Positions 11,301 to 62,081 of a DNA stretch of 64,000 bases are shown piece after piece. The stretch is taken from positions 1,460,268-1,524,267 of the forward strand of contig CM119267.1 in assembly GCA_051294375.1 (NCBI GenBank), in the 5' to 3' direction. The position numbers were made by a program, and so were the translations under genes. The notes below the pieces were generated by a model. That model worked only from the letters and a program-made list of their open reading frames with translations, did not search any database and was not told the origin of the DNA. The stretch comes from Paraspadella gotoi. Its lineage: Eukaryota > Animalia > Chaetognatha. Each line of letters begins with the position of its first letter. Position 1 is the stretch's first letter.

Positions 11301-12920
11301 AAGGTTTTTGTCTTTAATCGGGACTCAAATCAATTTATGGTTTGTACTCTAGACGAGGAAAAGAAAAAAACGGAATTAAAGGAACAAAAGGGAAAATAGA
11401 AAAAGTCCATTTGAAACAGGAATTAATTTAAAAAAGTTCGATTTAAAAAAAAAGAGAAAAATTTAAAAAGTTAATGATGAGTTTAAAAAATAATAAACCG
11501 GTCTTTTTAGAAAACCGCCTTTAAAAAAAATTGTTAAAATTAAAAAAACAGAAAAATATTTAAAACATTTCTTAAATTTTTTTAGAATTCCCCTTTCCAT
11601 TTCTACAATTATTGTAAGCTCATTGTAAACTGATCGTAAACACTTTACCGAATCTGATTTTCGTTTTACGCTTTTGTCTCGATTTTTTTCCCGCCAACGA
11701 CGAGTAGAAAAATACCAGCGTTCCGTCGATGGGAAAGAAACGTGACGAGGGTTTTTTCTTTTAGTTGCGAGTACTCGCGGAGCAACTCTTTAAGTCACTT
11801 TTCGGTCGATCCGTATGTCCGTCGGTCTGTCCCTCTTAATATAATTTGCCTATAGTTGGTTGCTCATTTGTTAAGACAGAAAAAAACCTCAAATGTAAGG
11901 GACTGCTTGCGCCGCCTTAAGGAAATCCTAAAACTATAAGAAATAAAATACGGAACTTTGATGCAGTGAGTGTCATAAATACACGGGCTAAGAAATTTTT
12001 TAAGCATGTCATATCATGTCATATCATGTGATAAAAGGGAGTGAAAATAAAGTAACTGCAGCGCAAAAACATTGGAATTACCGTTCTTGTTTTTTAAACG
12101 AAAAACAACAGATAAAAAAAGAAAAGAAAGACAACGACGACGACAACGACGACGACAACGACAACCAAAGCGAATTCTGTTGGATCAACGATTTTTTATT
12201 TGGCAAAGAAGCAAAAACCCAAAGATGTTATGTCATAAATGGAAGCTTAATCTTGGCTAAAATACGATCATAAGGTCTCTTATCTCTGCCTCTTTGGCCC
12301 CCTTTGTCTCTCTCTCTCTCTCTCTNNNNNNNNNNNNNNNNNNNNNNNNNATCTCTACCTCTTCGTCTCTTCTCGTGCTCTCTCGTCTCTCTCGTCCTCT
12401 CTCTCTCTTGCTCTTCTCTCGGTCTCTTCTCTCGTTATTTCTTCCTCTTCCTTAATTCCCCGATCATCCTTTCTTCTTTCCCCTAGTAGATCTTTCTTTT
12501 CTTTTCTTTCTTTCTTTTCTTCTTTTCTTTTCTTTCCGGTCAGAACCTCTCTCTCTTCTCAAGTTTTCTCTCACAATCTCTTGTCTTTCTTTTCTTTTCT
12601 TTTCTTTTCTTTTCTTTTCTTTCCGGTCAGAACCTCTCTCTCTTCTCAAAGTTTCTCTTCACATTTCACGATATCAGATCACGTTTTCACTTTTCACAAA
12701 ATTCCTTTCGTGACGTCTTCACTCGTAATTGGATTCACAGTCGTTTTTTTTTTAGCTTTTATCTTCGCGTCGTATTTTTGGCTAATTTGTTTTGCTTAAT
12801 CCTTTTCTTTAATAAGAGAAAGAATTTCCTCTATAAAATTGNNNNNNNNNNNNNNNNNNNNNNNNNCAATTGATCAGAATTTGAAGTTTAGCATCAGGCC
12901 ATCTGGCTTTTCTTCAAATA

Positions 12921-14239: not shown

Positions 14240-25090
<10,851 letters not shown>

Positions 25091-25898: not shown

Positions 25899-25974
<76 letters not shown>

Positions 25975-27841
25975 TACCATTATCTCTGCAAAAAATCTCT
26001 CTCGCGCGCGAAAGAGCGCGAGAGAGAGAACGAGAGACGCGCGACGAATCGGCTTCTGTGATTGGTCGAGAAATCCGCAACGCGGCGCGATGATTGGTCG
26101 TAGTTTCTCCTGGGAGAGAGGGATAGATGAAGAGGATGGAGAGAAGAAAGTAGGACAGAAAGATAGAGAGAAGGATAGAAAGAAAGAGACGCGACTCGCG
26201 AATTCAACTTCTTTCGCTTCGAAGAAGAAAAAAAAAAATTTAAAAGAAAAAAAAAAAGTTGAATCGATACAAATTTTATTTCGGGGGGGAGAGGGAGATG
26301 GAGAGGAGGCGGAGAAAAAGGGGAGAGGAGAGGGAGGAGGGAAAGAAGGGGAGACGGGGAAGGGGGAAAAAGAGGGAAGAGGAAGAGGGAGGAGAGAAAG
26401 GAGAGCTGAGAGGGAGAGGAGAGGGAGAAAGGAGAGGGAGAATGGGGAAAAGGGGGCAGGGAAGAGGAGGAGGAAGAGAAAGGAGAGAGGGAGAGGAAGA
26501 GGGAGAGGGAGAGGGAAAGAAAAGGGGGAGACGGACCGGGAGGGGGAAAGAGGGAAGAGGAAGGGGAGGGGAGAGAACGGAGAGAGGGAGAGGAAGAGGG
26601 AAGGGAGGAGGAAAGAAAGGGGGAGAACACGGGGGAGGGGAAAGAGAGGGAGAGGGGAGAGCGAGAAAGAGAGAGGAAGAGGAGAGGGAGAAGGGAGGGA
26701 GAGGGGAAAAGGGGGAGGGAAGGGAGGAGGAAGAGAAAGGAGAGAGCAAGGGAGGAGGAAAGAAAAGGGAGAGAGGGAAGGGAGAGAAAGAGGGAGAGAG
26801 GGGAGAGGGAGGAGGAGAGAAAGGGGGAGACGGGAGAAGGAGAGAGAGATGGAAAGGGGAGACAGAGGGAAATGGGGAGAGGGAGAGGGAGAAGGAGAGA
26901 AGGGGAAAGAGGGAGAGAGAGGAGGGAGAGAAAGGGGGAGAGGGAGAAGGAAGGAGGGAGAGGGAGGAGGGAGAAAAGGGGGGAGAAGGAGGAGGGAGGA
27001 AGAGAGAGGGAGGAGGAGAAAAAGGGGCAGTGGAGAGGGAGGAGGGAGAGAAATTTGGGAGAGGGGGGGAGGGAGAGAAAGGGAGGGGAGGACATGAAAG
27101 ATGAGGGAGATAAATAGAATAAAAAAATATAAAAAAATAAATATATAAGTATATTTAAAAAAACAAAATAATAAAAAATTAAGGATTTAATGGAAAATTT
27201 AAAACAAAAAAATGTTTTCCGTCTGTGATTGAAGGATACAATCCGTTTTTGTTTTTAAGATTAAAATTAACTTCGATATTTTTTATTTTTTTTAGTTTTT
27301 CAGATCATGATGAAGTCCGTATCTTTCCCGTCGTGTCAACTTCCTTTCTCTCTCTCTCTCCTTCTCTCTCTCTCCTCTCTCTCTCTCTCTCTGCCCAAGC
27401 CTTTCATCTTCTCTTTGTAAACAAATTAACTTCTCTTTTGCTCATTTTTTTCTCATTCATCGCAAATCTGCAAAATCATTCGCAAAAATCAAATTTTTTT
27501 TGGGGAAAAAAAAAAAATCAACGTTTTTTTGAAAAATAAAGTCAACAAAAGATCATGAGTGCAACCTTGGTGGCGCAGGCGTCTAATGGGCGCTCCATGA
27601 CAAGCGAAAAAATGAATTGTTGAATGCTCTGGTAATATGATATGATATTATATAAATTTTTCAATTTTGATTTACTAGTCATTTTTTAAAAAAAATTCGG
27701 ATTTTAATGTTTTCTCAACTCATAAAAAACTGATTTACTGAACAGAAAAAAAAGTTTTGAATGAGTTTTTTTAGATTCAACGGAAATGGAATCTGAGATT
27801 TGGCAAACAGACATTTCGGTGCTGAGTATGGAAACATGGAG

Positions 27842-27877
<36 letters not shown>

Positions 27878-29900
27878 NNNNNNNNNNNNNNNNNNNNNNN
27901 NNGAGAGAGAGAGAAGGATGAGAGAGAGAGGAGAGAAGAGAGAGAGATTGAGAGAGAATGAGAGGAGAGAGAGAGAGTACCATTTCTCTGCAAAAAAATC
28001 TCTCTCGCGGGGCGCGAATGAGAGAACGAGAGAACGCGCGACGATCGGCTTCTGTGATTGGTCGAGAAATCCGCACGGGCGCGATGATTGGTTCGTAGTT
28101 TTCTCCCTGGGAGAGAGGGATTAGATGAAGAGGATGGAGAGAAGAAAGTAGGACAGAAAAGATAAGAGAGAAAGGATAGAAAGAAAGAGACGCGACTCGC
28201 CGAATTCAACTTCTTTCCTCGAAGAAGAAAAAAAAAAATTTAAAAGAAAAAAAAAAAAGTTGAATCGATACAAATTCTTATTTCGGGGGGGAGAGGGAGA
28301 TGGAGAGGAGGCGGAGAAAAAGGGAGAGGAGAGGGAGGTAGGGAAAGAAAGGGGAGACGGGGAAGGGGAAAAGAGAGGGAAGAGGAAGAGGGGAGGAGAG
28401 AAAGGAGAGAGGGAGTAGGAGAGGGAGAAAAGGAGAGGGAGAGGGGAAAAAAAGGGGGGAGGGAAGAGGGAGGAGGAAGAGAAAGGAGAGAGGGGAGGAA
28501 GAGGGAGAGGAGAGGGAAAGTAAAAGGGGGAGACGGGGGATGGGGGAAAGAGGGAAAGAGGAAGAGGGAGGGGAGAGAACGGAGAGAGGGAGAGGAAGAG
28601 GGAGAGGGAGGAGGAAAGAAAGGGGGAGAACACGGGGAGGGGAAAGAGAGGGAAGAGGGGAGAGGAGAAAGAGAGAGGAAGAGGGAGAGGGAGAAGGGAG
28701 GGAGAGGGGAAAAGGGGGAGGGAAAAGGGAGGAGGAAGAGAAAGGAGAGAGGCAGAGGGAGGAGGGAAAGAAAAGGGAGAGAGGGGAAGGAGAGAAAGAG
28801 GGGAGAGGGAAGGGAGGAGGAGAGAAAAGAGGGAGAGGGAGAAGGAGAGGGAGGAGGGAGAACAAAAATGGGGAGAGGGAGAGGGAGAAGGAGAGAAGGG
28901 GAAAGAGGGAGAGAGAGGAGGGAGAGAAAGGGGGAGAGGGAGAAGGAAGGAGGGAGAGGGAGGAGGGAGAAAAGGGGGGAGAAGGAGGAGGGAGGAAGAG
29001 AGAGGGAGGAGGAGAAAAAGGGGCAGTGGAGAGGGAGGAGGGAGAGAAATTTAGGGAGAGGAGGGGAGGAGAAAGGGAGGATAGGAACATAAGAAAAATG
29101 ATGAGGGAGATAAAAGAATATAAAAAATATAAAAAAATAAAATATATAAGTATATTTAAAAAAAACAAAATAATAAAAATTAAGGAATTTAATGGAAATT
29201 AAAAAAAAAAATGTTGTCTTATTGAAGATAAATCCAGTTTTTTGTTTTTAAGATTAAAATTAACTTCGAATTTTTATTTATTTTTAGTTTTTCGATTCAT
29301 GATGAGTCCTATCTTTCCCGTCGTGTCAATTCTCTCTCTCTCTCTCTCTCCCTCTCCTTCTCTCTCTCTCTCTCTCCCTCTCTCTCTCTCTGTCCTCTTC
29401 TCCCTCCTCCAAGCCTTTCATCTCTCTCTTTTGTAAATCAAATTAACTTCTCTTTTGCTCATTTTTTTTTCTCATTCATCGCAAATCTTGCAAACATCAT
29501 CGCAAAAATCAATTTTTTGTTGGGGAAAAAAAAAAACAACTTTTTTTAAAAATAAAGTCAACAAACAGATCATGAGCTGGCAACCATTGGTGGCGCAGGC
29601 GTCTCAATGGCGCGCTCCATGACAACGCGAAAAAATGAATTTTGAATCTCTGGTATATATGATATATATTAATAAATTTTTTCAATTTTGATTACTAGTC
29701 ATTTTTTAAAAAAAAATCGATTTTAATGTTTTCTCAAACTCATAAAAAACGATTTACTGACAGAAAAAAAAGTTTTGAAATGAAGTGTTTTTTAGATTCA
29801 CGGAAATGGAATCTGGAGATCTGCAAACAGACATTTCGGTGCTGAGTATGGAAACATGGAGAAAAATCTCTCCTTCTCTCTCTCTCTCTCTCGTCTCTCT
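25890..29900. repeat. ~2-kb tandem duplicate (25890-27877 vs 27903-29900) across a 25-N gap, containing a ~0.8-kb polypurine tract
   Basis: Colinear copies differing by indels; N25 at 27878-27902. Confidence 0.85.
26001..26105. promoter_or_regulatory. Candidate CpG-rich promoter module: two TGATTGGTCG (CCAAT boxes) 32 bp apart plus E2F-like GCGCGAAA
   Basis: ATTGG at 26061 and 26093; GCGCGAAA at 26006-26013; the CCAAT pair also appears in the duplicate (~28057, ~28087). No transcript evidence. Confidence 0.3.
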
Positions 29901-31829: not shown

Positions 31830-32426
31830 TTTTAGTCGTGTAATCGTGCGAGTGAAAATTAGTTTAAATGAAAAAAAAATGTCTCATTTTCTTGAATATT
31901 TTTATTAATTTTAACCCATAATTACTCAAATTATTCATAATTGGATGGATAAAATGAGATTAAATTTTTTGTGTGGGTAGGAAAGTGTGTGATTGAGCAG
32001 AATATAAAGTTTAGATGGAATCGAGAAGTGGAAATGAGTTTGCATGAAAAAACCAAAGTCAAGTTGACTTGAAATTTTATTATTTAGGCTTACTCATAAA
32101 TGTTTTAATTAGTTAATTAATTGATTATTTAATTAAATTGAAAAAATGATTCAAGTAAAAAAAATTATGCAAGTGGAAAAATGGTGCAAGTTAAAAAAGT
32201 TATTAAAAAAAATAATGCCTGTTGTAAAAATGTTGCAGGTTGAAAAAAAAAAGAAAGTTGAAAAAATAATTGCAAGCGATTCACATGTATATGCGCATCC
32301 ATTGGTTTGGTATGGTACAATCTGTTAAGATCACAAATTGAAAGAATTATCGTCATTTATCATCAGATTAGCTTATTACCGCTTAATTATCGTAGGCAGA
32401 TCCGACATTGTTGGCTCAAACTTGTT
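31830..32426 (+). mobile_element. HINE/DINE-1-like element, 5'-degraded
   Basis: Internal ~130-bp repeat, 18-bp subrepeats (~32140-32280) and family 3' end GGCAGATCCGACATTGTTGGCTCAAACTTGTT. Confidence 0.7.
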
Positions 32427-32442
32427 TCTCTCTGACTAAAAA

Positions 32443-36354: not shown

Positions 36355-36890
36355 TCTTGAGTCATGATTTGATGGATAGATTGGATTGAAATTTTGTGTG
36401 TGGGGAGGGAAGTGTGTGATTGAGCTGTATATGAAGTTTCGATGGAATCGTCTAAGTGGAAATGAGTTTAAATGGAAAAACAAAAAAATATATTTCACTA
36501 TTTGAACACCAATTACTCATGAGTGGATGGGGCGATTGAATTGAAATTTTGTATGTGGGTGGGAAAGTGTGTGATTAAACTAATTTACTAATTGATTATG
36601 CTTCTTTTTCTCTTTATTTTAAATGTAAAAGCAAGATGTATTAATTAATTAAATAATTAATCAGTTAATTAATCAATTAGTCAATTAATTAATCAATAAT
36701 CAATTAATCAGTCAATTAATCAATAAAAACAACCATTTCGGATCAAATTAATTAATTGCCAAATTAATTTAATAATTAACCTGAATAAATTAATTATTAA
36801 TTAATTAAATAATTAATAACTTGAATTAATTATTAATTAATTACCGATAATGATCGTGGGCAGATCCGACATGGTTTGCTCAAACTTGTT
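36355..36890 (+). mobile_element. HINE/DINE-1-like element, 5'-truncated
   Basis: Colinear with ~41390-42015 including the 3' terminus GGGCAGATCCGACATGGTTTGCTCAAACTTGTT. Confidence 0.75.
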
Positions 36891-37491
36891 TATTCTCGAC
36901 GCATTTCTAAGAAATGAAAAATGGCGGAGGTGGATTAATAGGAGCAGAGAGCGGGGGTAGCGGAGGAGTCTTAAAAGGAGCCGAGTTCAAAGAGCCAAGC
37001 CTCTTCCNNNNNNNNNNNNNNNNNNNNNNNNNNNNNNNNNNNNNNNNNNNNNNNNNNNNNNNNNNNNNNNNNNNNNNNNNNNNNNNNNNNNNNNNNNNNN
37101 NNNNNNNNNNNNNNNNNNNNNNNNNNNNNNNNNNNNNNNNNNNNNNNNNNNNNNNNNNNNNNNNNNNNNNNNNNNNNNNNNNNNNNNNNNNNNNNNNNNN
37201 NNNNNNNNNNNNNNNNNNNNNNNNNNNNNNNNNNNNNNNNNNNNNNNNNNNNNNNNNNNNNNNNNNNNNNNNNNNNNNNNNNNNNNNNNNNNNNNNNNNN
37301 NNNNNNNNNNNNNNNNNNNNNNNNNNNNNNNNNNNNNNNNNNNNNNNNNNNNNNNNNNNNNNNNNNNNNNNNNNNNNNNNNNNNNNNNNNNNNNNNNNNN
37401 NNNNNNNNNNNNNNNNNNNNNNNNNNNNNNNNNNNNNNNNNNNNNNNNNNNNNNNNNNNNNNNNNNNNNNNNNNNNNNNNNNNNNNNNNNN

Positions 37492-38327: not shown

Positions 38328-38600
38328 GTTTGGGGGGGGGGTGAGGGAGTGGGGGAAGGAAAGAGAATAAGGTGAGGTAAAGTAAGGAAGATAAAAATGA
38401 ACAGTCGGAGAAAGGGGAAATAATATTCGTGTTAGAAAAGAGAGTTAGGATTTGAGAAAGAAAAAAGGGTGAGTTGATCAAAATATTTAGGAAAAAAGTG
38501 AGACTTAATTTGATCAGATAAATAAGTGAAAACATTGTTGAGTCTGTAGTCGGGCATTGCCTCGGTTCACCCCGCCTATAAGCATGCCACTGTCAGTTGT

Positions 38601-38672
38601 GACCCGGTTGCTCATTGAGTAAAGCCATCAGCTCATGACCACTAGGTACCGGGTTCAATCCCAACCCGGTAC
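38601..38672 (+). promoter_or_regulatory. tRNA-derived segment (Pol III A/B-box-like) inside the LTR; also at 42367-42438 (-) and 42771-42842 (-)
   Basis: GACCCGG-T(G/T)GCTCATTGAGTAAAGC-CATCAG-CTCATGA-CCACT-AGGTA-CCGGGTTCAATCCC-AACC(T/C)GGTAC: ~72 nt with tRNA spacing, A-box-like TGGCTCATTGAG, B box GGTTCAATCCC and CT-CAT-GA at the anticodon position. The anticodon and T stems are broken, so it is not a functional tRNA. TATAAG lies ~24 nt upstream. Confidence 0.7.
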
Positions 38673-38679
38673 CTAGCGT

Positions 38680-38767
38680 GAGGACGGCCGTAAGCCGCCT
38701 TGGGGGCGTGGAAAACCCTCAAGCCTGGTTCCAAGCCCAGGACCCTTTCCTTGGCTGCTTAAGGGGG
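38680..38767 (+). ncRNA. Twister-ribozyme-like motif inside the LTR; also at ~42263-42348 (-) and ~42666-42752 (-)
   Basis: UAA-GCC-GC-[P3 CUUGGGGG...CCCUCAAG]-[P4 CCUGG-UUCCAAGC-CCAGG]. The loop matches twister L4 (U-YYY-AAGC); its GC can pair with the GC preceding P3 (T2), and its UCC can pair with GAGGA just upstream or GAGGG downstream (T1). P1/P2 cannot be assigned cleanly by eye. Confidence 0.5.
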
Positions 38768-39034
38768 TTATAGAAGTTATGGATAGTCATCTTCAGCCCA
38801 NNNNNNNNNNNNNNNNNNNNNNNNNNNNNNNNNNNNNNNNNNNNNNNNNNNNNNNNNNNNNNNNNNNNNNNNNNNNNNNNNNNNNNNNNNNNNNNNNNNN
38901 NNNNNNNNNNNNNNNNNNNNNNNNNNNNNNNNNNNNNNNNNNNNNNNNNNNNNNNNNNNNNNNNNNNNNNNNNNNNNNNNNNNNNNNNNNNNNNNNNNNN
39001 NNNNNNNNNNNNNNNNNNNNNNNNNNNNNNNNNN

Positions 39035-39268
39035 AATCGGGTGACCAATCGGTGATTGAATCTTGTGAGGGTCATATTTAATCGGGTGACCAATCGGTGA
39101 TTGAACCTTGTGAAGGTCAGATTTAATCGGGTGACCAATCGGTGATTGAATCTTGTGAGGGTCTGATTTAATCGGGTGACCAATCGGTGATTGAATCTTG
39201 TGAGGGTCAGATTTAATCGGGTGACCAATCGGTGATTGAATCTTGTGAAGGTCAGATTTAATCGGGTG
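39035..39268. repeat. 45-bp minisatellite (AATCGGGTGACCAATCGGTGATTGAATCTTGTGAGGGTCAGATTT), 5+ units
   Basis: Direct tandem copies running out of the N-gap. Confidence 0.92.
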
Positions 39269-39423
39269 AGGCTGATCGAAACTCGAGTTAAGTGGAGGCG
39301 AAAAAGTCGATTAGTCCAACGAAGCGAAAGAAAAAGAAAACAAAAGGACAAAAGAATAACAACAAGAAGATTGGAAAACAACAACGACAAAAACTGAACA
39401 TATTGGACGTTGGAGGAAGGAAA

Positions 39424-40573: not shown

Positions 40574-41218
40574 AAGAAAGAGAGGAAGAAAGAGAAAAAG
40601 AGAAGTCCAACTTATTGAATTTCTTAATCATATTTACATATTGCAGTATTAAATCTAAATGTATCTATTTTCATTTTAGATCTTAATATTAGTTCTGTTT
40701 TATAGTTTTCCAGTAGCTAAATATAATCTTTAGCAATGCTAATGATTAATATGAGTTATAGTAATATTTTATTTTTAATTAATAATAATACTCTGACATT
40801 TTATTACATAAAGAGTTAACTTGCTCATATTTATTTGTTCAGAAGTTTAACCATTATTCAGCATTGGTTTGGTTTTGGTTTGGTTGTTCTCCTTATCAGA
40901 GCTCAATCAGACTAAGGTTAACATCCTTAACTGTTAATCATTAATCGTGCTGAATTGTGCTTACGGTTTAAGCATAATATAATAAATGTTTATAAACAGT
41001 ATTTAATTATGTTTTATTTTTTTTAATTCAGGCAAAGCGAATTTGCTATACACAAATTAAAAACTTAGTTTATATAGTAATGATGCCAAGTCAAAACAAA
41101 TTCTTTCAAGTAAGATATTAATAAAATTAATTAAACTTCTTACACTGAACATCTTAAAATATATTTATCTTCTAAGAATATACCCTCTTATACAAGCGCT
41201 ACAAAGCTGAACTCGTTT

Positions 41219-42015
41219 TTAGTCGGATCTGCTTTCAGCAGATCCCGAATCTATAATTCACTTTGTCGGTCCGTCGGTCCACCCCCTCAATGTTGTCGGG
41301 CACTCACTTATAACATGTCCGTCCATCTTTCTGTTTGTCCGTCCGTCCGTCCGTCCATCCGTCCATCCGACCTTAGCAAAAAACACCAATTACTAGTGAT
41401 TGGATGGATGGATTGGAATAAAATTTTGTGTGTGGGTGGGGAAGTGTGTGATTGAGCTGTATATGAAGTTTTGATGGAATCGTCCGAGTGGAAATGAGTT
41501 TAAATGGAAAAAAAAAATTTTTACTATTTGAACACCAATTACTCATGAATGGATAGGGCGATTGACTTGAAATTTTGTATTTGGGTAGAAAAGTGTGTGA
41601 TTAAACTGGAAATCAAGTTTCGATGCAATCATTTGAGTGGAAATGAGTTTAAATGGAAAAAACAAAGAACTATTTCACTAATTAATTATGCTTCTTTTTC
41701 TTTTTATCTGAATTGTAAATGCAAGATGTATTAATTAATCTAATAACTAATCAGTTAATTAATCAACTAGTCAATTAATTAATCAATAATTAACTAATCA
41801 GTCAATTAATCAATCAAAACAAACATTTTGGATCAAATTAATTAATTAATTGCCTAATTAATTAAATAATTAACTTGAATAAATTAATTATTAATTATTA
41901 ATTAATTAAATAATTAATTAACTTGAATTAATTATCAATTAATTATTAATTAATTAATTAATTAATTACCGATAATAATCGTGGGCAGATCCGACATTGT
42001 TTGCTCAAACTTGTT
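41219..42015 (+). mobile_element. Non-autonomous Helentron (HINE/DINE-1-like), complete copy
   Basis: 5' TTAGTCGGATCTGC-TTTCA-GCAGATCC (subTIR + palindrome), (GTCC/GTCT)n microsatellite, two ~130-bp internal tandem repeats, 3' GCAGATCCGAC subTIR + hairpin GTTTG-CT-CAAAC + TTGTT end; inserted in T-runs with no TSD. Confidence 0.8.
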
Positions 42016-42211
42016 TTTACTTAACATATATATATAATTTAAAGAAAGATAAAAAAATGTGACAACCGTTTACAATTGGAAATATTTACAATTTTTAAAA
42101 GTTGTAAAAGTGTGTATTTTTCCTCATATTAAAATTAAGATATAAATTTCAATCAAAAAGGTCTTTTAAATTATTCATTCAAATATTTTTTTTATGAATT
42201 TTCTCTTCAAT

Positions 42212-42898
42212 TGTGGATAAGGCGCTAAGTGGGCTGAAGATGACTATCCGTAACTTCTATAAACCCTCTGCAGACATGGAACGGGTCCTGGGCTTGGAAC
42301 CAGGCTTGAGGGTTTGCCACGCCCCCAAGGCGGCTTACGGCCGTCCTCACTCTTCCCGCAGGGTAGGTACCAGGTTGGGATTGAACCCGGTACCTAGTGG
42401 TCATGAGCTGATGGCTTTACTCAATGAGCCACCGGGTCACAACTGAAAGAGTCATGCTTATAGGCGGGGTGAACCTAGGCAATGCCCGACTACATGCCCC
42501 CCAGATTGTAACCCACCCTGCACTGCTTCCAGTGGAGGGAGGGGAGCAATCTTCGGCACGTCCATGGGCCTGGAATCAGAAGGTGGAATACGCTCGACAG
42601 GATGGGCTCACCAGTGTGGATAAGGCGCTAAGTGGGCTGAAGATGACTATCCGTAACTTCTATAACCCCTCTAGCAGACATGGAACGGGTCCTGGGCTTG
42701 GAACCAGGCTTGAGGGTTTGCCACGCCCCCAAGGCGGCTTACGGCCGTCCTCACTCTTCCCGCAGGGTAGGTACCAGGTTGGGATTGAACCCGGTACCTA
42801 GTGGTCATGAGCTGATGGCTTTACTCAATGAGCCACCGGGTCACAACTGAAGAGGCATGGCTTATAGGCGGGGTGAACCTAGGCAATGCCCGACTACA
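42212..42898 (-). mobile_element. Complete TRIM-like non-autonomous LTR retroelement (687 bp)
   Basis: Two near-identical direct repeats, 42212-42494 and 42615-42898, each with TGT...ACA ends; 120-bp non-coding interior; flanked by 4-bp TSD CAAT (42208-42211 / 42899-42902). On the minus strand a PBS-like TGGTGAGCCCAT lies 1 nt after the 5' LTR and a G-rich PPT-like GGGGGGCA abuts the 3' LTR. Confidence 0.9.
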
Positions 42899-43334
42899 CA
42901 ATAAGATTTACTGCAATATGCAAATTAGATTATAGTACTTTAAATACTAATTTTTATATTTATAGAATATAATTTGCATGTTGCAGTAAATAATAATGCA
43001 AAAGAAATTCAAACAAAAAATACTTGATTCCATATGAAACATGACAATTGCAAAGATCTTAAAAATGAGAAGCCATATCTAAATTTTTAACTTACTCATG
43101 ATCGCACACTTTTATAAAAATCCATCGTAATTCTTAGTAGTTTTTATTAAAAAAAAAAAAAAACTATATAAAAAAAGCATGACGACGACGATGATGTCGT
43201 AATTCTTAGTAGTTTTTATTAAAAAAAAATTAAAAAAAACTATATAAAAAAAAGCATGACGACGACGATGATGTCACAAAGAAGCTGAGCCTTTGCTTAA
43301 TCTCTCCAAGATGGGCTTTGGCACGTCTGGCGAA

Positions 43335-43947: not shown

Positions 43948-44039
43948 AATCAATCAATCAATCAATCAATCAGAGAGAGATAGAGAGAAGGAAACTTTTA
44001 AAAATTCTAATGTGTCTTTTGGTTTTTTATTTTAAACTC

Positions 44040-44530
44040 TTTTCCACCTTTACGATTCCATAAAAAATGAATATCCAGCTTAATCACATAAAATTTCACA
44101 CACAAAATTTCATTTCAATTTATTTATCCAATTTTTAATAAATGTAATAATTCTGAGTACATTTAAATGAAAATACTTAATAATTAATAATTATGACTTT
44201 TGTTATTTCCATTTAATCTCATTTCCACTCGGACGATTCCATCGAAACTTTATATCCAGCTCAATCACACACTTACCTACCCACACACATAATTTCATTC
44301 CAATCCATCCATCCAAACACGAGTAATTAGAGTTTAATGAAAAGGTGAGACGGACCTTCAGACAGACAGACAGACGGATGGACGGACATAATTTTTTTGG
44401 CATAATTTATCATTATTCGATGATCTGACATGATTTAAGTGAGTGCCCGACAAGATTTAGGGGGGAGGGACCGACGGACCGACAAAGTGGATTATAGAGT
44501 CAGAATCTGCTGATGAACAAATCCGACTAA
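44040..44530 (-). mobile_element. HINE/DINE-1-like element, 5' half
   Basis: ...AAATCCGACTAAAA 5' terminus on the minus strand, (GACA/GACG)n and ~130-bp repeats; the left boundary is uncertain and may extend through the 18-bp array. Confidence 0.65.
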
Positions 44531-45058
44531 AAGTAAAAAGTTGAAAACTCAAATCGTCTGAGCAATTTTTTTTCTTTTTCTTTTTATTCTTTTTTTTCTT
44601 TTTCTTTTTTTTTCGCAGTTTCCTGCTCGTTTGCATTTTTTGAGTCGCGAGAAAATCGTCTTCGCAGTTTAAGAGAAGAAGGGGAGATGATAGAGAGGAA
44701 AAAACAAGAAGAAGGGGAGATGATAGAAAGGAAAAGGAAAGAAAAGAAAGGGAGATGATAGAGAGGAAAAGGAAAGATAAGAAGGGGAGATAATAGAGAG
44801 GAAAAGGAAAGAGAAGAATGGGAGCTGATAGATAAAAAATGGAAAGAGAAGAAGGGGAGATGATAGAGAGGAAAAGGAAACCGCAGCCCCGCCGCAGCCG
44901 CGGTAGGAAGGGTAACGGAGGTGGTAGGAATTTTTCCGTGGTCGGATGTGAAACTGATGGTCTGTGCGCCGCCACCGCCGCCGCCACCTCTGCCGCCACC
45001 ACTGCCGCCAACACAGCCGCCACTGTCGCCCTTGACGACAAGCTTCTAAGCTACTCAA

Positions 45059-45638
45059 TAAGGCGTAGTAAAATTCCTAAATTCAACTTTAATTGAAATT
45101 CTAAAGTGAGGAACGAACAACATTATACTAATGAACTTTATGTAATAAAAAATTTAGAATAAATTTTACAATTTACGCAGTAGGCCATATTTATACTAGT
45201 ACTAAACCAATAAATGTTAAAATTTCAAAAGTTTTTTCTAAGATTTTTTTGCAGATTTGGATTCATCATAAAAAGTTGATAAAAAGAAATATAACTCTTT
45301 TTGACAAATTCCTTTATTAAGTGGGTCAAAAATTTAAAAAATCTATATTTTAAGCTGAAAATTAACTTTTTATATATTAAATATAGTTTTTTTTAATTTT
45401 TAACCCACTTAATGAAAGAATTTTTAAAAATAATTATATTTTCTTTATCACTTTTGACGAGGAATTCAAATCTGCAATCAAAATTAAGAAAAGCCTATTG
45501 TGATTTTTTTTATTTTATAGCCTACTGCGAAAATTAAAAAACATAAAATTAATTTTTTTTACAAATTAATGTTCACTGATTGTATGTTGTTCATAATTGA
45601 CTTTTAGAATTTTCGTATGAACTTTTCACTACGCCTTA
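45059..45638. mobile_element. Second copy of the hAT-type MITE
   Basis: Same TIRs and interior as 34827-35425; TSD CTACTCAA / CTACTCAT (7 of 8 match). Confidence 0.9.
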
Positions 45639-45959
45639 CTACTCATATCTCTGTCCATGGTTTCACTAATTCACCTTTGACCTTTCATGTGATTTTCGGC
45701 TTCGTTCATTATCGACCACAATTGTCTTCAGATCTCGGGATTCGGTTCTGACATCACAGTGACGCGCTCTGTGACACTCTGATGTCACTCCTTTCTTCTT
45801 CACCTCATTGCCTCCCCTTCACTGCCAGCTGCCACCCCTGTACCCTTTTTCCTCCAAACATCGGAATTGCTCCCAAAACAAAAGTCACGTGACTTCCTGG
45901 TTTGACTTACTTAACCCGTTGGCTTCGATTCTCACCGAATGCCAATTCCACCTCCCTCT

Positions 45960-46012
<53 letters not shown>

Positions 46013-46177
46013 GTCGGGTTCGGGGTCAAAAAGTTCAAATGTTTTAAAGGAACATTACCAAATACGTACAATTTTAAATTTTGTTTTTACGTCCAACGTA
46101 TTCTTAATGAAAGACCCTATAAGCCGCTTAATCGCGAGCTCAGGTCCGTTGTTGTATCATTTATCATTTATCATTTA

Positions 46178-46213
<36 letters not shown>

Positions 46214-46405
46214 AACTCTCTCCCTCTCTCTCTCTCTTTTTTTCTCTTCCTTCGAAAAAAACTTTTCCCTCTAAGTATTTGGTTTTTTTGTCCGAATGGT
46301 TTTCCAACGAGTCTTTCTTTATTCTCATTTACTATTTCCTTTCTTTTCCTTTTTTTCTCCTTTTTTTCCCTTTTTCTTGCGTAGGTCTTTTCTCCGTCTA
46401 ATTTA

Positions 46406-46438
<33 letters not shown>

Positions 46439-46454
46439 CCTCTTTGTATTCTTT

Positions 46455-46790
46455 CCTTTTCCTCTCTATCATCTCCCCTTCTTCTCTTTCCTTTTCCTCT
46501 CTATCATCTCCCCTTCTTCTCTTTCCTTTTCCTTTCTATCATCTCCCCTTCTTCTCTTTCCTTTTCCTTCTATCATCTCCTCTTCTTCTCTTTCCCTTTC
46601 CTCTCTAACATCCCCATTCTTCTCTTTCCTTTCCTCTCTATCATCTCCCTTCTTCTCTTTTCTTTTCCTCTCTATCATCTCCCCTTCTACTCTTTCCTTT
46701 TCCTCTCTATCATCTCCCCTTCTTCTCNNNNNNNNNNNNNNNNNNNNNNNNNAAAGAGAAGAAGGGGAGATGATAGAGAGGAAAAGGAAA
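46455..46790. repeat. ~35-bp purine/pyrimidine minisatellite (also 44670-44880)
   Basis: AGAGAAGAAGGGGAGATGATAGAGAGGAAAAGGAA units; sits at the breakpoints of the inverted duplication. Confidence 0.8.
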
Positions 46791-46803
46791 GAATACAAAG
46801 AGG

Positions 46804-46836
<33 letters not shown>

Positions 46837-47263
46837 TAAATTAGACGGAGAAAAGACCTACGCCAAGAAAAAGGGAAAAAAAGGAGAAAAAAAGGAAAAA
46901 GAAAGGAAATAGTAAATGAGAATAAAGAAAGACTCGTTGGAAAACCATTCGGACAAAAAAAACCAAATACTTAGAGGAAAAGTTTTTTCGAAGGAAGAGA
47001 AAAAAAGAGAGAGAGAGAGGGAGAGAGTTAGAGAGAGAGAGAGGAGATTCTCACATGATGGAAGAGAGAGAAAGAGGAGAGAGAGAGAGAGAGAGATTAA
47101 ATGATAATGATAAATGATACAACAACGGACCTGAGCTCGCGATTAAGCGGCTTATAGGGTCTTTCATTAAAGACATACGTTGGACGTAAAAACAAAATTT
47201 AAAATTGTACGTATTTGGTAATGTTCCTTTAAAACATTTGAACTTTTTGACCCAGAACCCGAC

Positions 47264-47304
<41 letters not shown>

Positions 47305-47617
47305 TGGAATTGGCATTCGGTGAGAATCGAAGCCAACGGGTTAAGTAAGTCAAACCAGGAAGTCACGTGACTTTTGTTTTGGGAGCAATTCCGATGTTTG
47401 GGAGGAAAAAGGGTACAGGGGTGGCAGCTGGCAGTGAAGGGGAGGCAATGAGGTGAAGAAGAAAGGAGTGACATCAGAGTGTCACAGAGCGCGTCACTGT
47501 GATGTCAGAACCGAATCCCGAGATCTGAAGACAATTGTGGTCGATAATGAACGAAGCCGAAAATCACATGGAAAGGTCAAAGGTGAATTAGTGAAACCAT
47601 GACAGAGATATGAGTAG

Positions 47618-48202
47618 TAAGGCGTAGTGAAAGTTGCATACGAAAATTCTAAAAGTCAATTATGAACAACATACAATCAGTGAACATTAATTTGTAAAAA
47701 AAATTAATTTTATGTTTTTTAATTTTCGCAGTAGGCTATAAAATAAAAAAAATCACAATAGGCTTTTCTTAATTTTGATTGCAGATTTGAATTCCTCGTC
47801 AAAAGTTGATAAAAGAAAATATAAATTATTTTTAAAAATTCTTTCATTAAGTGGGTTAAAAATTAAAAAAACTATATTTAATATATAAAAAGTTAATTTT
47901 CAGCTTAAAATATAGATTTTTTAAATTTTTGACCCACTTAATAAAGGAATTTGTCAAAAAGAGTTATATTTCTTTTTATCAACTTTTTATGATGAATCCA
48001 AATCTGCAAAAAAATCTTAGAAAAAACTTTTGAAATTTTAACATTTATTGGTTTAGTACTAGTATAAATATGGCCTACTGCGTAAATTGTAAAATTTATT
48101 CTAAATTTTTTTATTACATAAATGTTCATTAGTATAATGTTGTTCGTTCCTCACTTTTAGAATTTCAATTAAAGTTGAATTTAGGAATTTTACTACGCCT
48201 TA
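47618..48202. mobile_element. hAT-type MITE, inverted re-copy of 45059-45638
   Basis: Reverse complement of 45059-45638 with the same flanks and the same TSD mismatch (ATGAGTAG / TTGAGTAG), so it is the same insertion event seen twice. Confidence 0.85.
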
Positions 48203-48579
48203 TTGAGTAGCTTAGAAGCTTGTCGTCAAGGGGCGACAGTGGCGGCTGTGTTGGCGGCAGTGGTGGCGGCAGAGGTGGCGGCGGCGGTGGCGGCGCACAG
48301 ACCATCAGTTTCACATCCGACCACGGAAAAATTCCTACCACCTCCGTTACCCTTCCTACCGCGGCTGCGGCGGGGGCTGCGGCGCCGGCGGCAGAGAGAA
48401 GTCCCGAATTTTCCGTTAGTGGATGCAGCAGCGAAAATTGAAGGCCGGCGGGCGTCGTTAACGCCAGATGGAAATGGCAAATGGCATTGCAAATGGCATA
48501 GCAAATGGCATATTATAGCATAATGGACTGACATGGCGTAATGGCGAAGGCAACGACAAACAACTACGGAGTCTCTGTG

Positions 48580-56236: not shown

Positions 56237-57467
56237 AACAAGTTTGAGCAAACAATGTCGGATCTGCCTACAATAATTAAGCGGTAATCTGCTAATCAGA
56301 TAATAAATCACAATATTTTGTTAAATTTTTTTCAACTCGCGTCATTTTTTCCACGCACATAATTTTTTCAACTCATCAATTTTTCAATTTACATCATTTT
56401 TACAATTTGCATCATTTTTGTAACTCGCATAATTTTTTTCACGCACATAATTTTTTAAACTCATCATTTTTTCAATTTACATCATTTTTACAATTCGCAT
56501 CATTTTTTCAACTTGCATAATTTTTTCAACTTGCATATTTTTTTCAACTTGCATAATTTTTTCAACTTTTTTCAAATTAATTAATTAATTAATTAATTAA
56601 TTAATTAAAACATTTAATAGTAATCATAAATAAAAAAGATTAAAGTAAATGTGACTTATGTTTTTTCCATTTAAACTCATTTTCACTCGCACGATTCCAT
56701 CAAAACTTTATATCCAGCTTTATCTCACACTGTCCTACCCACACACAAAATTTCATTCCAATCTAACCAGCCAATCACGAGTTATTGCAGCTTTTTGATA
56801 AGATGGGACGGATGGACGGATTGATTGACTAATTTATTTAATTATTGATTAATTAATTGACTAATTGATTAATTAACTGAATAATTATTTGATTTATTAA
56901 TACATCATTCATTTACATTTAATATAAAAGGAAAAAGAAGCATAATCTATTAGTGAAACAGGTTTTTTGTTTTTTTTCATTTAAACTCATTTCCACTCAA
57001 ACGATTCCATCGAAACTTGATTTCCAGCTCAATCACACACATTCCTACCCAAATACAAAATTTCAAGTCAATCGCCCTATTAACTCTTGAGTAATTGGTG
57101 TTCAAATAGTGAAATTTTTTTTTCCATTTAAACTCATTACCACTCGGACGATTCCATCGAAACTTCATATACAGCTCAATCACACACTTCCCTACCCACA
57201 CACAAACTTTCATTCCAATCCATCCATGCAATCACGAGTAATTGGTGTTTTTTGCTAAGGTGGGACAGACGGACGGACGGACGGACGGACAGACGGACAG
57301 ACGGACAGACAGACGGATGAATGGACATCATTTTTTTGGTATAATATATAATAATTCTATGTTCTGACATGATATAAGTTAGTGCCCGACAATATTGAGG
57401 GGGCGGACCGACGGACCGACAAAGTGAATTATAAAGTCGGGATCTGCTGACAAGCAGATCCTACTAA
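56237..57467 (-). mobile_element. HINE/DINE-1-like element, complete copy
   Basis: AACAAGTTTGAGCAAACAATGTCGGATCTGCC at the left end and GGGATCTGCTGACAAGCAGATCCTACTAA at the right; (GGAC)n tracts, ~130-bp repeats and an 18-bp subrepeat array at ~56330-56570. Confidence 0.8.
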
Positions 57468-58332
57468 AAATTGATTTTCTTTAATATCTTTTCCATATAA
57501 TTTTTTTTAAATGTTTCAAAGGATTTTTTTAAAATCTTGATCGGAATCTTAGTCAAAAGTATAACAACTTTTGAAATTAAATTAAACACATTTGGTCACA
57601 TTTAAAAAAATAAATAAATATATTTTCTGAAAGAGAAAAGATTGAATTATATTTCTGATATAAACAAAAATTTTCTATACGTAAAATGTTTATATAATTA
57701 CTAAGGATAATGATTATCATTTTGTTGAAAAAAAAATTAAAAAATTCTTGTAGGAACCTTAACAAAACATATGATTTAAATATGATAATTTAGGAGTTCA
57801 AACTTTGTTCCCCCTGATTTAAAAACTACTGACATAGGGCTAAAAGACTATATTATCAGATTTTAAAATTTTAAGTTTTAGCTGTGTCAACGAGGCCTGG
57901 CAGAAAAAAATTATCACAATTTTTTTTTCTTATGTCATTATGCTATTATAAAATAATTTTAATGCATCATGTGAGGTATCATACAAAAGCTAACGATGTC
58001 TGCTACATGACAGCACGTGAAAAAAAATTTTCTTAATAAAAATAAAAAATTACCAGACTACCCTACAATAAGGCGCTTAAAGGGAAAAAAATGGCAGAAA
58101 AGGGGAAAAAGGCGAGAAGCTTAAAGGGAGAAAAAGGGCACAAAAAGGGAAAAAGGTGCAAAGCGCATAGTTTCATAAAAAAGTCAAAAAGACTAAATTT
58201 CACGAAATAATAAAATGCTGCTTTTCATAATTTTTTTTTTGCTGAGTCCTGTAATGACCAACATCAGTCAAGTCATCACGAAAAAAAATCACAAAAAGTG
58301 ATCAGGAAAAATTGCCGAGGCAGATGGCAATG

Positions 58333-58386: not shown

Positions 58387-58729
58387 AAAAGACTACGAAA
58401 TTTTTATAATTTTGATTAATAATGGGTCGCCCCGGTTTTTTAATTAAATGAATTGGGGAAGGAGATAAAATCTAATGGACCCCCCCCGAATGAATCTCTA
58501 CAATTCGTTTCTCTCTCTCTCACTCTCACTCTCTCTCACTCTCACTCTCTCTCTCTCTCTCTCTCTCTCGCTCTCTCTATCTCTCTCTCTCACTCAAGCT
58601 CTCAGCAAAAAAGCGGCAAAGATAAAAACCGAGGAAAGGGAATCTTTTGCCGAAAACTAAAGACACGGCAGTTTTAACGGGAGGAAGTTTGCAAAAAAAC
58701 TTATAAAGAAATTTGAAAAGGGTTAGATT

Positions 58730-60235
58730 TTTAGTCGGATCTGCTTATCAGCAGAATCTATAATTCACTTTGTCGGTCCGTCGGTCCGCCCCTTCTATCT
58801 TGTCGGGCATTCACTTATATCATGTCAGAACACCGAATTATGATAAATTATGCACAAAAAAAACGATGCCCATCCGTCCGTCTGTCTGTCTGTCCGTCCG
58901 TCCGTCCCACCAATTAATTAATTAACTTGATCCGAAAGTTGACTGATTAATTAATAATTGATTAATTAATTGATGAATGGATTAATTAACTGATTAATTA
59001 TTTGATTAATTTATGCATCTTGCATTTACATTTATTATAAAAATAAAAAGAAGCATAATCAATTTGTGAAACAGGTTTTTTGTTTTTTTCATTTAAACTC
59101 ATTTCCACTCAAACGATTCCATCAAAACTTGATTTTCAGATTTCCTACCCACATACAAAATTTCAGGTCAATTGCCCCATCCACTCATGAGTAATTGGTG
59201 TTCAAATATTGAAATATATTTTTCGGTTTTTTCCATTTAAACTCATTTCCACTCGGACGATTCCATCGAAACTTCATAACCAGCTCAATCACACACTTCC
59301 CTAACCACATAAAAAATTTCCTTCCAATCCATTCATTCAATCACCAGTAATTGGTGTTTTTTTTTAAGGTAGGAAGGACGGACAGACGGATGGATGGACG
59401 GATACACAGACAGACAGACAGACGAACAGATGGACATCGTTTTTTTTTAATAATTTATCATAATTCGATGTTCTGACATTAAATAAGTTAATGCCCGACA
59501 AGATTGAGGGACCAACAAAGTCAATTAAAAATGATGTCTGTCCATCTGTCTGTCTGTCTGTCTGTCCATCCCACCTTAGCAAAAAACTGCGATTACTTGT
59601 GATTGGATGGATGGATTAGAATAAAATTTCGTGTGTGGGTGGGGAAGTGTGTGCTTGAGCTGGATATAAAGTTTCGATGGAATCGTGCGAGTGGAAATGA
59701 GTTTAAATGGAAAAAACAACAAAATCTATTTCACTATTTGAACGCCAATTAATCATGAGTGGAAGGGGCGATTGACTTGAAATTTTGTATGTGGGTAGCA
59801 AAGTGTGTGATTATGCCGGGAATCAAGTTTCGATAGAATTGTCCAAGTGAAAATGAGTTTAAATGAAAAAAAACCTGTTTTACTAATTGATTATGCTTCT
59901 TTTTAATTTTATATTATTATTATTATTATTATTATTATTGATTAATCAAACAATTAATTAGTTAATCAATAATTAATTAATCGGAAAATTAATCAATCAA
60001 ATAAAATTCAATCAATTGATTTGTTTATCAATTAATTAATTATTTAATCAATCAATCAATCAATAAAACAATCAATCAAGTCAATCGTTATTGGCATAAT
60101 TTTTGTCGTCGCCATCATCGTCGTCGTTGCTTTTGTCAGTTACAAAAAGACCCAAAAATAAATAATAAACTAAATTATTTATTAATTACCGATAATGATC
60201 GAGGGCAGATCCGACATTGTTTGCTTAAACTTGTT
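58730..60235 (+). mobile_element. HINE/DINE-1-like element containing an inverted fragment of the same family
   Basis: Same 5' and 3' termini as 41219-42015; ~58912-59520 is family sequence in the opposite orientation. Confidence 0.72.
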
Positions 60236-61248
60236 TTCAATTAAAGTAATGTTTTTCTCTCGCTCGCTCTCTCTCTTTCTGTTGGAATACTTTTGACATT
60301 ATGATTAAATTTAGTAGTCACTTGTTTTCTCTATAACATTTCTATATTACTTACTAATTTTATGTGCTGCCATCTTGAAATGAGTTTTGTAATTATTTGT
60401 AAGAAACAAAAGTCACATCCCTATATAAAAGTCAGCTTCACTTGTTTAAGTCACTGAGGTTTGATATCTCCTGGCTAAAAGGAAGTAAGTATTTGTCTTG
60501 TAAAAAATGATTATTTTTCTTTAAAGAATAAGTTTCTAATAAATTGTTATTTTTATTTTCTAGTGCTTATACTCCTTGCAAATAATGGAAACTACAATGC
60601 AATCTGCTTTAAATTTGTTATTGTCTTCTACTGTCTACATAAATATGAACTTAAGTAATAAAACGATTTAAACCTTAAAATGGAGTTAACTAAATTCCTT
60701 GAAATGCCAATTAAACAAACTCGAATAGAACAACCTCAGTTAAAGAGTAATATAACGTTTAATATCTCGTCAACTAACCCTCGAAACGTCCGTTACTCGA
60801 TCACTTTCTCTCTCTCTCTTTCTCTCTCTCTCTCTGACTCCTCTCTCTCCGTCTTTCACTCTGTAGGTTTCCCTCTTCTTCTCTTCTTATTTGTAGTCTG
60901 TTAATTATCCGTTTTGATTAAAATTTATATTACTGAAGGAAAGATAAAGTCGTTGTCTCTATTATTATTATGATTAATTTATTTTTCAAATCTTTTGGTC
61001 GAAAACGAGATCCCCTTGCGTCCTGACACCAAAAACAAGAAAAGCGTTTTAGACAAAAGAAGATAAATCTTTAGATGGCAAGAGAGAGAGAGAGAGAAAG
61101 GGAGTACGAGAGAAAGGGGGGGAGGGAAATACAGAGAGAGAGATAAAAACAGAGAGAGCGCCATTATGTGCTTCTTTGAGTAATTTTTCTTTATGAAAAA
61201 AAATTAAAGACTAAAATTTCTCGTTTTCACATTTATTTTTTAACTTTG

Positions 61249-61987
61249 TTAGTCGGATCTGCTTTCAGCAGATCCCGGCTCTATAATTCACTTTGTCGGT
61301 CCGTCGGTCCGCCCCCTCAATCTTATCGGGCATTAACTTACATCATGTCAGAACATTGAATTATGATAAATTAGGCCAAAAAAAATGATGTCCGTCCATC
61401 CGTCCGTCCGTCTGTCCCACCTTAGCAAAAAGCTCCAATAACTCGTGGTTGGATTGGAATAAAATTTTGTGTGTGTGATGAAGCTAAATATAAAGTTTCG
61501 ATGGAATCGTGTGAGTGGAAATGAGTTTAATTGGAAAAAATATAAGTTGCATCTATTAAAATCTATTGACTTATTTTAACCAATAATTACTCTAATTGGA
61601 TGGATAGATTGAGTTTAAATTTTTGTGTGTGGGTAGGAAAGTATGTGACAAAGCTTGATATAAAGTTTTGGTGGAATTGTGCAAGTGGAAATCAGTTTAA
61701 ATGGAAATGTTTTAATTAATTAATTAATGTAAAAAAGATGCAATTTAAAAAAATTATGCAGGTTGTAAAAATGATGCAAGTTGAAAAAATTATGCAAGTT
61801 AAAAAAAGTATGCAAGTTGAAAAAATGATGCGAATTGTAAAAATGATGCGAGTTAAAAAAATGATGCGAGTTAAAAAAAATGATGCGAGTTCAAAAAAAT
61901 TTAAAAAAATATTGTTATTTATCATCTGATTAGCTGATTACCGCTTAATTATTGTAGGCAGATCCGACATTGTTTGCTCAAATTTGT
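61249..61987 (+). mobile_element. HINE/DINE-1-like element, complete copy
   Basis: TTAGTCGGATCTGCTTTCAGCAGATCCC ... GGCAGATCCGACATTGTTTGCTCAAATTTGTT; 18-bp subrepeats at ~61735-61895. Confidence 0.8.
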
Positions 61988-62081
61988 TTTTTTTCAAATT
62001 GCGATTCATCTTGCTGATGAATCCAATGCCCCTGATTTTTTTTATTGCTCCCTAATCTGCCAAAACGCAAAGACTTTATTT

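Follow-up and report, generated by a model that had tools for sequence, protein, structure and literature searches.

Does a short LTR element with a twister-like motif in each of its LTRs work as a retrozyme, or does it merely carry the motif along? The question is raised by a locus at 42212-42898 of the window, i.e. the whole stretch of 64,000 nucleotides analysed here. Answering it requires that the element be placed among the known families of LTR elements, that the motif be assigned to a ribozyme class, and that its fold be judged against the variation among other copies.

Self-BLAST against the window, together with the coordinates of the parts, bore out the preliminary description of a complete LTR element with 283/284-bp LTRs, a 120-bp interior, a PBS, a PPT and CAAT duplications. 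The element is 687 bp long, has TG..CA ends and has its sense strand on the minus strand, to which all its parts refer. The 5′ LTR (42615..42898, 284 bp) and the 3′ LTR (42212..42494, 283 bp), each bounded by TG..CA, share 98.2% identity, with 280 identities, 2 mismatches and 3 gap positions. The non-coding interior (42495..42614, 120 bp) carries a PBS-like stretch with a TGG start one base after the 5′ LTR (42602..42613), for a putative primer, and a short polypurine tract of six G followed by CA directly before the 3′ LTR (42495..42502). By eye, the PBS comes nearest to the tRNA-Trp type in Fig. S2 of PMC10886601, with which it agrees at nine of its first ten bases. Flank comparison identified the target-site duplication CAAT on the left (42208..42211, plus strand) and right (42899..42902, plus strand), a 4-bp duplication that rests on one insertion. 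The G+C content of the element is 56% vs 17-21% in the flanks. No coding partner was recognised by inspecting the reading frames within the 64-kb window.

A third LTR, about 90% alike, lies on the opposite strand at 38545..38800 (plus) and ends at an N gap; its twister core occupies 38677-38740. The intact P3 and P4 stems previously ascribed to it are there, but an 11-nt deletion takes away the 5′ strand of P5, and one change falls within the A box. The window is microsatellite-rich and gapped and contains duplicated blocks at 81-95% identity, so some differences among the three LTRs may be assembly errors; the same composition suggests an animal host.

Several other repeats share the window. 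Multi-kb duplicated blocks at 205-11301, 14518-25087 and 25899-29899 (81-93% identity) show scattered small indels typical of uncorrected long reads, and a large inverted duplication at 44881-48382, with arms of ~1.6 kb at 95% centred on an N gap (46728-46752), is probably an assembly fold-back. Beyond the N gap at which the third LTR ends is a tandem repeat with a ~45-bp period (39035-39269). A family of dispersed repeats, with ~150-bp internal units, occurs in both orientations at 31839-32427, 36362-36891, 41216-42024, 44031-44539, 56446-57470, 58729-60244 and 61238-61991; one of its copies adjoins the TRIM on the left, and the right flank of the TRIM is also very deeply covered in sequencing runs.

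The earlier picture of the element, drawn without a tRNA-like promoter part, was incomplete, since A and B boxes sit in each LTR. The tRNA-like segment spans 42770..42842 in the 5′ LTR, with the A box from 42835, the B box ending at 42781 and a TATA-like word upstream (42866-42862), and recurs at 42366..42438 in the 3′ LTR. An A/B box pattern at tRNA spacing, which was fitted to this sequence, matched twice in the window (in both LTRs) and in 0 of 100 shuffles. Over the segment, neither ARAGORN (0 genes) nor the Rfam tRNA model gave a tRNA call, and the predicted fold consists of two hairpins with no cloverleaf; the segment is therefore read as a promoter-like remnant and likely serves as an RNA polymerase III (Pol III) promoter.

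The name Helenus stands for TRIMs whose LTRs include a tRNA-like segment with the boxes TRGCY and GGTTC, and which have a PBS and a PPT (Kojima, 2024; PMC10886601). Helenus belongs to the proposed TRIMp3 group, and its animal members have 4-bp TSDs and Gypsy-like PBSs (PMC10886601). The present element shares with Helenus the two LTRs, the A and B boxes (TRGCY in box A, GGTTC in box B), the PBS and PPT, the lack of coding sequence, the 4-bp TSD and a length within the range of 311-1263 bp; it differs in that the YGG of box A is missing and a twister fold follows the boxes. We are highly confident that it is a Helenus-type TRIM. We regard the family as new. In the available part of the PMC10886601 consensus file, a word search found no entry similar to the start of this LTR or to its PBS. 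Words of the twister-loop type in that part of the file marked no twister, in a format whose wrapped lines may hide some motifs, and the available text of the article lacks the word 'twister' and names ribozymes only in one reference title. According to the same source, Pol III transcription and Gypsy mobilisation are unvalidated for the published Helenus too.

Two further observations concern the B box. A strong hairpin of 11-13 bp surrounds it in both LTRs (42770-42802 and 42366-42398, minus strand), and the commonest variant among copies turns a G-U pair of this hairpin into G-C. Also, loose contig ends over 42776-42800 in one sequencing run (X5) indicate a diverged subfamily (31 contigs, agreement 0.74) with a B box nearer the usual tRNA T-loop.

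What, then, is the motif behind the boxes? On the minus strand, a type-P5 twister fold can be drawn at 42685..42763 in the 5′ LTR and at 42281..42359 in the 3′ LTR, and the 81-nt twister stretches of the two LTRs are identical. The predicted cut sites, U42741^A42740 and U42337^A42336, lie 404 nt apart and agree with the U^A positions proposed earlier. The UAA, GCC and GC blocks, the 8-bp P3 and the 5-bp P4 with its L4 loop were likewise found in each LTR where the preliminary description had put them. In 5′ LTR coordinates, P5 (5 bp, 42763-59/42689-85) closes the whole fold and is followed inward by P2 (3 bp, 42756,54,53/42738-36, with 42755 bulged), by GA (42752-51) upstream of the T1 strand, and by the T1 pseudoknot of three Watson-Crick pairs (42750-48/42702-00). 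P1 is a loopless palindrome of six bases (42747-42) directly before UAA. The GC strand then enters the T2 pseudoknot (42735-34/42697-96), after which come P3 (8 bp, 42733-26/42716-09) and P4 (5 bp, 42708-04/42695-91), the latter enclosing the L4 loop.

The core bases (UAA, GA and the L4 loop) and both pseudoknots are thus all present, the block order is the type-P5 circular permutation, and P3, P4 and P5 all pair. In the rice twister, G13, G30, A46 and G48 tolerate no substitution (PMC5113685), and their counterparts are present here at 42735, 42697, 42751 and 42749. One T1 pair is U-A, compared with C-G in both the Rfam consensus and the Schistosoma table, which amounts to a two-sided change vs known twisters. 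Twisters are expected to have a 4-bp P2, and the one found here has 3 bp and a bulge. The caution that P2 has only three nucleotides was justified, but a partner strand for it, previously overlooked, does exist upstream, and the 5-bp P5 is present too. Twisters often tolerate mutation of P1, P2 or P4, and P1 is dispensable (PMC8501958, PMC6154101, PMC5113685).

The Rfam search named earlier as a check gave a divided answer. At the gathering level there were 0 matches, and a scan of the whole window to E 10 gave 60 matches, mostly microsatellite hairpins and no ribozyme. At low stringency, Twister-P5 (RF02684) aligned end to end (1-58/58) in all three LTRs with 16.3, 16.3 and 17.1 bits (E 1.1, 1.1 and 0.22), short of the RF02684 cut-off of 37.6 bits. 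Block order, UAA cut loop, GA with T1, T2 GC, L4 loop and P4 are shared with this type. The differences are a P3 that the model does not have (a 22-nt insertion in the alignment), a loopless palindromic P1 with zero loop bases, a bulged 3-bp P2 with one base missing, and the sub-threshold score itself.

Could the resemblance be accidental in GC-rich LTR sequence? The Rfam E-values are not significant, and the loose core descriptor that we used was written after the motif had been seen. Nevertheless, within the 64-kb window this descriptor matches nothing but the three LTRs, and it matches only 2 of 200,000 shuffled LTR sequences, even though pairing of P3, P4 and P5 is not demanded. In addition, all blocks occur in the permuted order with correct pseudoknot pairing, and the pattern of variation among copies (see below) speaks against accident. 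We regard chance as extremely improbable and close to refuted. Because of the rarity of descriptor matches, the block order and the pseudoknots, the motif is almost certainly derived from a twister.

Another reading of the same bases would be a type-P1 twister that uses a downstream GAGGG (~42671-42667) as its T1 strand. The preliminary description had offered both this word and an upstream GAGGA as T1 partners; the latter stands, whereas none of the three LTRs offers the former an in-register partner for P1 or P2, and Rfam picks the P5 arrangement. GAGGG could pair with L4 bases via one G-U, and diverged subfamilies, seen in loose contig ends only, keep a GAGGG run there, but the region differs among the three LTRs and is variable among copies. 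A type-P1 arrangement is accordingly very unlikely. One consensus of loose ends pointed to a type-P1 subfamily; with an agreement of 0.46, it was set aside.

The element thus carries a twister-derived motif of type P5, and the next question is whether it can reach an active fold. Within one copy, P1 can form at most 1 bp, whereas between two copies it forms 6 bp (-10.7 kcal/mol). With no loop between its halves, a palindrome of six bases is unable to fold back into a three-pair hairpin; in our model, two copies would instead form a shared 6-bp P1, and each core of the resulting double twister would combine the 5′ half of one LTR's motif with the 3′ half of the other's. The loopless palindrome shifts the likely mechanism to cutting as a pair. 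Minimal hammerheads that depend on dimers offer a parallel, as they share the very short palindromic stem beside the cut site (PMC6765202, PMC7761336, bioRxiv 10.64898/2026.07.22.740005), and in Penelope-like elements and animal non-LTR retrozymes such a stem is believed to make two adjacent copies cut jointly (PMC6765202, PMC7761336). They differ in ribozyme class, and here true LTRs around the PBS and PPT supply both copies.

By nearest-neighbour energies, which omit pseudoknots and tertiary contacts, the minimum of the motif monomer is -31.9 kcal/mol vs -21.3 kcal/mol for the twister skeleton, and this minimum is a rival hairpin that buries the cut site. For two strands, the double-twister skeleton is at -61.5 kcal/mol; a pair of monomeric skeletons reaches -42.6 and a pair of blocked monomers -63.8, while the two-strand minimum of -74.7 kcal/mol is a non-twister fold. 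In these models, pairing would make the active skeleton competitive, not favoured. When whole LTRs or whole transcripts were folded, P2, P5 and the inter-LTR P1 had probability 0 and P3 at most 0.06; P4 alone survived, at 0.8-0.9, although in the long transcript the copy of the 5′ LTR reached 0.17. A blocked form has also been predicted for the hammerheads of plant retrozymes (PMC4918200), so the blocked fold here is not decisive.

Copies in public sequencing runs provide a second line of evidence. Thirteen of the 15 runs listed hold the stretch in part: nine from one organism, three from biofilm metagenomes and one from a second organism. None of these is on record as RNA, and the data are assembled contigs, which are unable to show RNA ends or circles; one run, X9, is only guessed to be RNA, and it covers the flanks as well and is therefore silent on expression. 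Thousands of contigs match the element, with 8158 contigs on an 811-base stretch in run X1, where contig depths do not equal copy numbers. Contigs of X1 that end exactly at the LTR termini and continue into unrelated AT-rich flanks number 92 at 42494 and 68 at 42615, and several others join the left to the right flank across the element. These exact breaks show that there are many insertions with these ends. The arrangement recurs in a second lineage: a biofilm contig of 320 nt, from run X10, runs from one LTR across the interior into the other and shows 18 differences and 3 gaps.

Searches beyond these runs returned little. A metagenome scan gave one match, which lies inside a bacterial-looking reading frame and was rejected as chance; viral contigs gave 0 matches; and the 62 matches to a 17-mer in prokaryote genomes are about the chance expectation, the longest LTR match being 28 bases.

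Variation among the copies bears on whether the fold has been maintained. The variants come from summed contig depths and are not linked into haplotypes; 40 of the 44 in 42655-42800 are listed, 38 of them in the motif, and our test covers motif positions 42691-42763. Among those listed, 11 variants in this region reach at least 1% of summed depth in X5, the deepest run, and 11/11 spare the fold. Six are unpaired (L3 and the P2 bulge) and five keep their pairs: a G-U of P3 becomes G-C, P2 has two changes, from G-U to A-U (7-9%) and from C-G to U-G, and P1 and P5 each have a single change from C-G to U-G. As 64 of the 219 possible substitutions are fold-compatible, 11/11 gives P = 7e-7, a value that, like those that follow, ignores mutation hot spots and shared descent in a young family that is conserved anyway. 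Leaving out the four variants at elements defined after data inspection gives 7/7 and P = 1.4e-4, counting the four variants beyond the 40 listed as incompatible gives P = 3e-4, and transitions at paired sites alone give P = 0.034.

P4 and L4 have no variant among the 40 listed, and the four inner palindrome bases have none at 1% in X5, unlike L3, which is a comparison over few positions. Variants that break a pair or a core base make up 15 of the 38 listed in the motif and reach at most 0.6% in X5 and 1.2-4.1% in the shallower X9. In the biofilm lineage (X11 and X12), five of nine L3 bases are changed and P3 has G-C for G-U, with no listed change in 42727-42754; in X10, the loop-closing pair of P3 is broken. 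No two-sided covariation was found among the listed variants, all five stem variants being one-sided. Similarly, no insertion restoring the missing base of the P2 5′ strand was found among them, and P2 is one base short family-wide. At 42755, the commonest copy base (~90% in X5) differs from the base of this element and could pair with the T2 guanine in competition with T2; mispairing of that kind has been proposed to harm the rice twister (PMC5113685). Since the frequent variants spare the fold, selection on the fold is suggested, and we consider this moderate evidence, drawn from sequence comparison, that the source copies kept the fold under selection.

The same data have to be weighed against a Helenus-type TRIM with a captured, inactive twister, for example from a SINE or a Penelope-like tail. 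Such a TRIM would replicate in the ordinary way, its Pol III transcript staying uncut and keeping a long R repeat; the motif would persist because the family is young or because it acts as a structural signal. The short P2, loopless P1 and sub-threshold Rfam score are as expected for a relic, as are the predicted preference for blocked folds, the loss of half of P5 in the third LTR and the want of two-sided covariation among copies; other Helenus families, as far as the available consensus file goes, persist with no recognisable twister loop. A relic does not explain why frequent variants avoid core positions and breaking changes, both pseudoknots included, why a second lineage rewrites L3 and keeps the rest, or why wasp Helenus-2 LTRs hold, as judged by eye from the available file, a ribozyme of a different class at the same place (see below). 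We therefore consider an inactive twister fairly unlikely, and the view that the fold is active in source copies reasonably probable on the strength of these sequence patterns.

An active fold could serve the element in more than one way. The route that we put forward, at a little short of an even chance for the whole, is that a high-copy TRIM of Helenus layout carries pair-activated twisters in both LTRs, which release a circularising 404-nt RNA that is copied by a Gypsy-type partner. Transcription by Pol III would start near 42842 and, as no run of four U is found, read through into the 3′ LTR; the absence of such a run from the sense strand has a chance probability of 0.31 and is not significant. 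The transcript with two LTRs would be cut twice to yield a 404-nt RNA (predicted at 42337..42740, minus strand), a hypothetical monomer made of one permuted LTR and the interior with no terminal repeat. Cuts at the same site in both LTRs would remove the R repeat and make strand transfer impossible. For plant retrozymes, a missing R repeat has been argued to mean a circle primed at the PBS (PMC4918200), and since the 404-nt product has no R repeat, replication would likewise proceed through a circle. The circle would carry one palindrome only and should be slow to recut, and reverse transcriptase and integrase would come from a Gypsy-type element, to judge from the 4-bp TSD and the PBS type. 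If the twister is active, pair-dependence of cleavage, which derives from modelling, is as probable as its absence, and formation of a circle has somewhat better than even prospects. Contig joints that 'go back' were considered as signs of circles and discarded, as they do not match the predicted junction, itself indistinguishable from LTR sequence.

Alternatively, an active twister may serve linear end-processing only, with a cut in the 3′ LTR alone setting the 3′ end of the Pol III transcript. A terminal repeat of ~100 nt would be left, ordinary LTR reverse transcription would work and no circle would be needed; a single copy may then cut itself, its P1 reduced to 1 bp with a loop of four bases. 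This would suit the dispensability of P1 in other twisters, the part that twisters play in defining RNA ends of non-LTR retroelements in Schistosoma (PMC8501958), the 404-nt monomer, which has no special stability, and, weakly given its chance of 0.31, the absence of an internal Pol III terminator. It sits badly with the two LTR motifs being identical in the same local context, where selective cutting needs an extra assumption, with a monomeric skeleton ~10 kcal/mol above the blocked hairpin, and with inner palindrome bases that, over few positions, are invariant at 1% in X5, unlike L3. End-processing alone appears rather unlikely.

How far the proposed circle-forming element resembles known retrozymes can be judged feature by feature. 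Plant LTR retrozymes (PMC4918200, PMC7761336) are likewise non-autonomous, with a ribozyme motif at the same place in both LTRs, a PBS and PPT, a 4-bp TSD, a cut-to-cut RNA with no R repeat and a ribozyme predicted to be blocked. They differ in having a type III hammerhead rather than a candidate twister, a plant rather than an animal-like host, a tRNA-Met type PBS, which the comparison with Fig. S2 of PMC10886601 did not indicate here, and a monomer of 600-1000 nt rather than the predicted 404 nt; the likely tRNA-type internal promoter is a feature of the present element. In anatomy (LTRs, PBS, PPT, 4-bp TSD, non-coding centre and same-place ribozyme motif) the element agrees with the definition of a retrozyme. 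The stability of the monomer is unremarkable (z -1.55 as a linear and -1.07 as a circular RNA), and its 65% of paired bases falls below the >70% given for retrozyme monomers (PMC4918200). No type III hammerhead was found in the LTRs, as the sense strand contains no CUGANGA and there was no Rfam hammerhead match; CUGANGA words on the antisense strand were considered and rejected, as they lack a hammerhead arrangement. The element therefore stands outside the hammerhead-defined retrozyme family and below the Rfam twister threshold, and probably works like an LTR retrozyme with a twister variant.

Perere-3 of Schistosoma mansoni already provides an example of twisters in an animal retroelement (PMC8501958). 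The T-variants of Perere-3, for which cleavage has been shown, share with our motif the weak P1 and the setting in an animal retroelement. They differ in belonging to a non-LTR element with a single twister at its 5′ end, in type-P1 order, in a 4-bp P2 and in involving no circle.

A closer parallel comes from gall-associated wasps. In DataS1 of PMC10886601, as far as available, the LTRs of Helenus-2_SyUm and Helenus-2_SyJa contain, directly after the B box, what by eye (unscored) is a complete hammerhead of type III whose loops are complementary over 12 bases. These elements resemble the present one in the 4-bp TSD, the tRNA-Trp PBS, the LTR length (277 bp) and the succession of tRNA-like boxes in the 5′ half and a ribozyme-like motif; also by eye, two short words of their 3′ tail resemble the tail of this LTR at 13/15 and 11/13 bases. 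The difference lies in the motif, a type III hammerhead with complementary loops, which the available text of PMC10886601 does not mention. Judged by these sequences, Helenus-2_SyUm and Helenus-2_SyJa would be candidate animal LTR retrozymes. Following the reasoning of PMC10085705, two ribozyme classes in one slot would argue that cutting, not class, is kept. The comparison suggests an unrecognised group of animal LTR retrozymes with interchangeable ribozymes. A more specific and tentative version, which we hold to be doubtful as a whole, is that behind a Pol III TRIM promoter lies a ribozyme slot, which a hammerhead occupies in wasp Helenus-2 and a pair-dependent double twister in the present element, such that only a transcript with two LTRs would be cut and the 404-nt circle would be protected from recutting.

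In the open-licence PubMed Central and bioRxiv literature, our searches turned up no LTR element with a twister, no TRIMp3 with a ribozyme and no twister dimer occurring in nature. LTR retrozymes are described as hammerhead elements, mainly of plants (PMC7761336; bioRxiv 10.64898/2026.07.22.740005), and the available text of the latter source does not contain 'twister'. Animal retrozymes are said to be without LTR, PBS and PPT, and unpublished insect type III hammerheads and truncated twisters in RTE elements have been mentioned (PMC7761336). If our reading is true, the circle-based LTR route would extend to animals with the ribozyme class interchangeable, the twister would gain a defined natural job together with a natural candidate for the domain-swapped double twister, and an answer would be offered to how some Pol III-driven TRIMs form their RNA ends. 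If the motif is dead, the element would still be a new Helenus family that records the capture of a ribozyme.

The copies also hint at diversity beyond this family layout. Over 42615-42680 and 42212-42275, loose contig ends from the same organism show at least two other versions of the LTR tail, with the twister core common to all, which points to several subfamilies. In X9, one contig of 1416 nt matches the tRNA-like part and the twister (42276-42439) and not the first 55 LTR bases, and other contigs leave the LTR just past the B-box hairpin. Such single contigs with the tRNA-like and twister module only could be SINE-like relatives or the source of a captured module.
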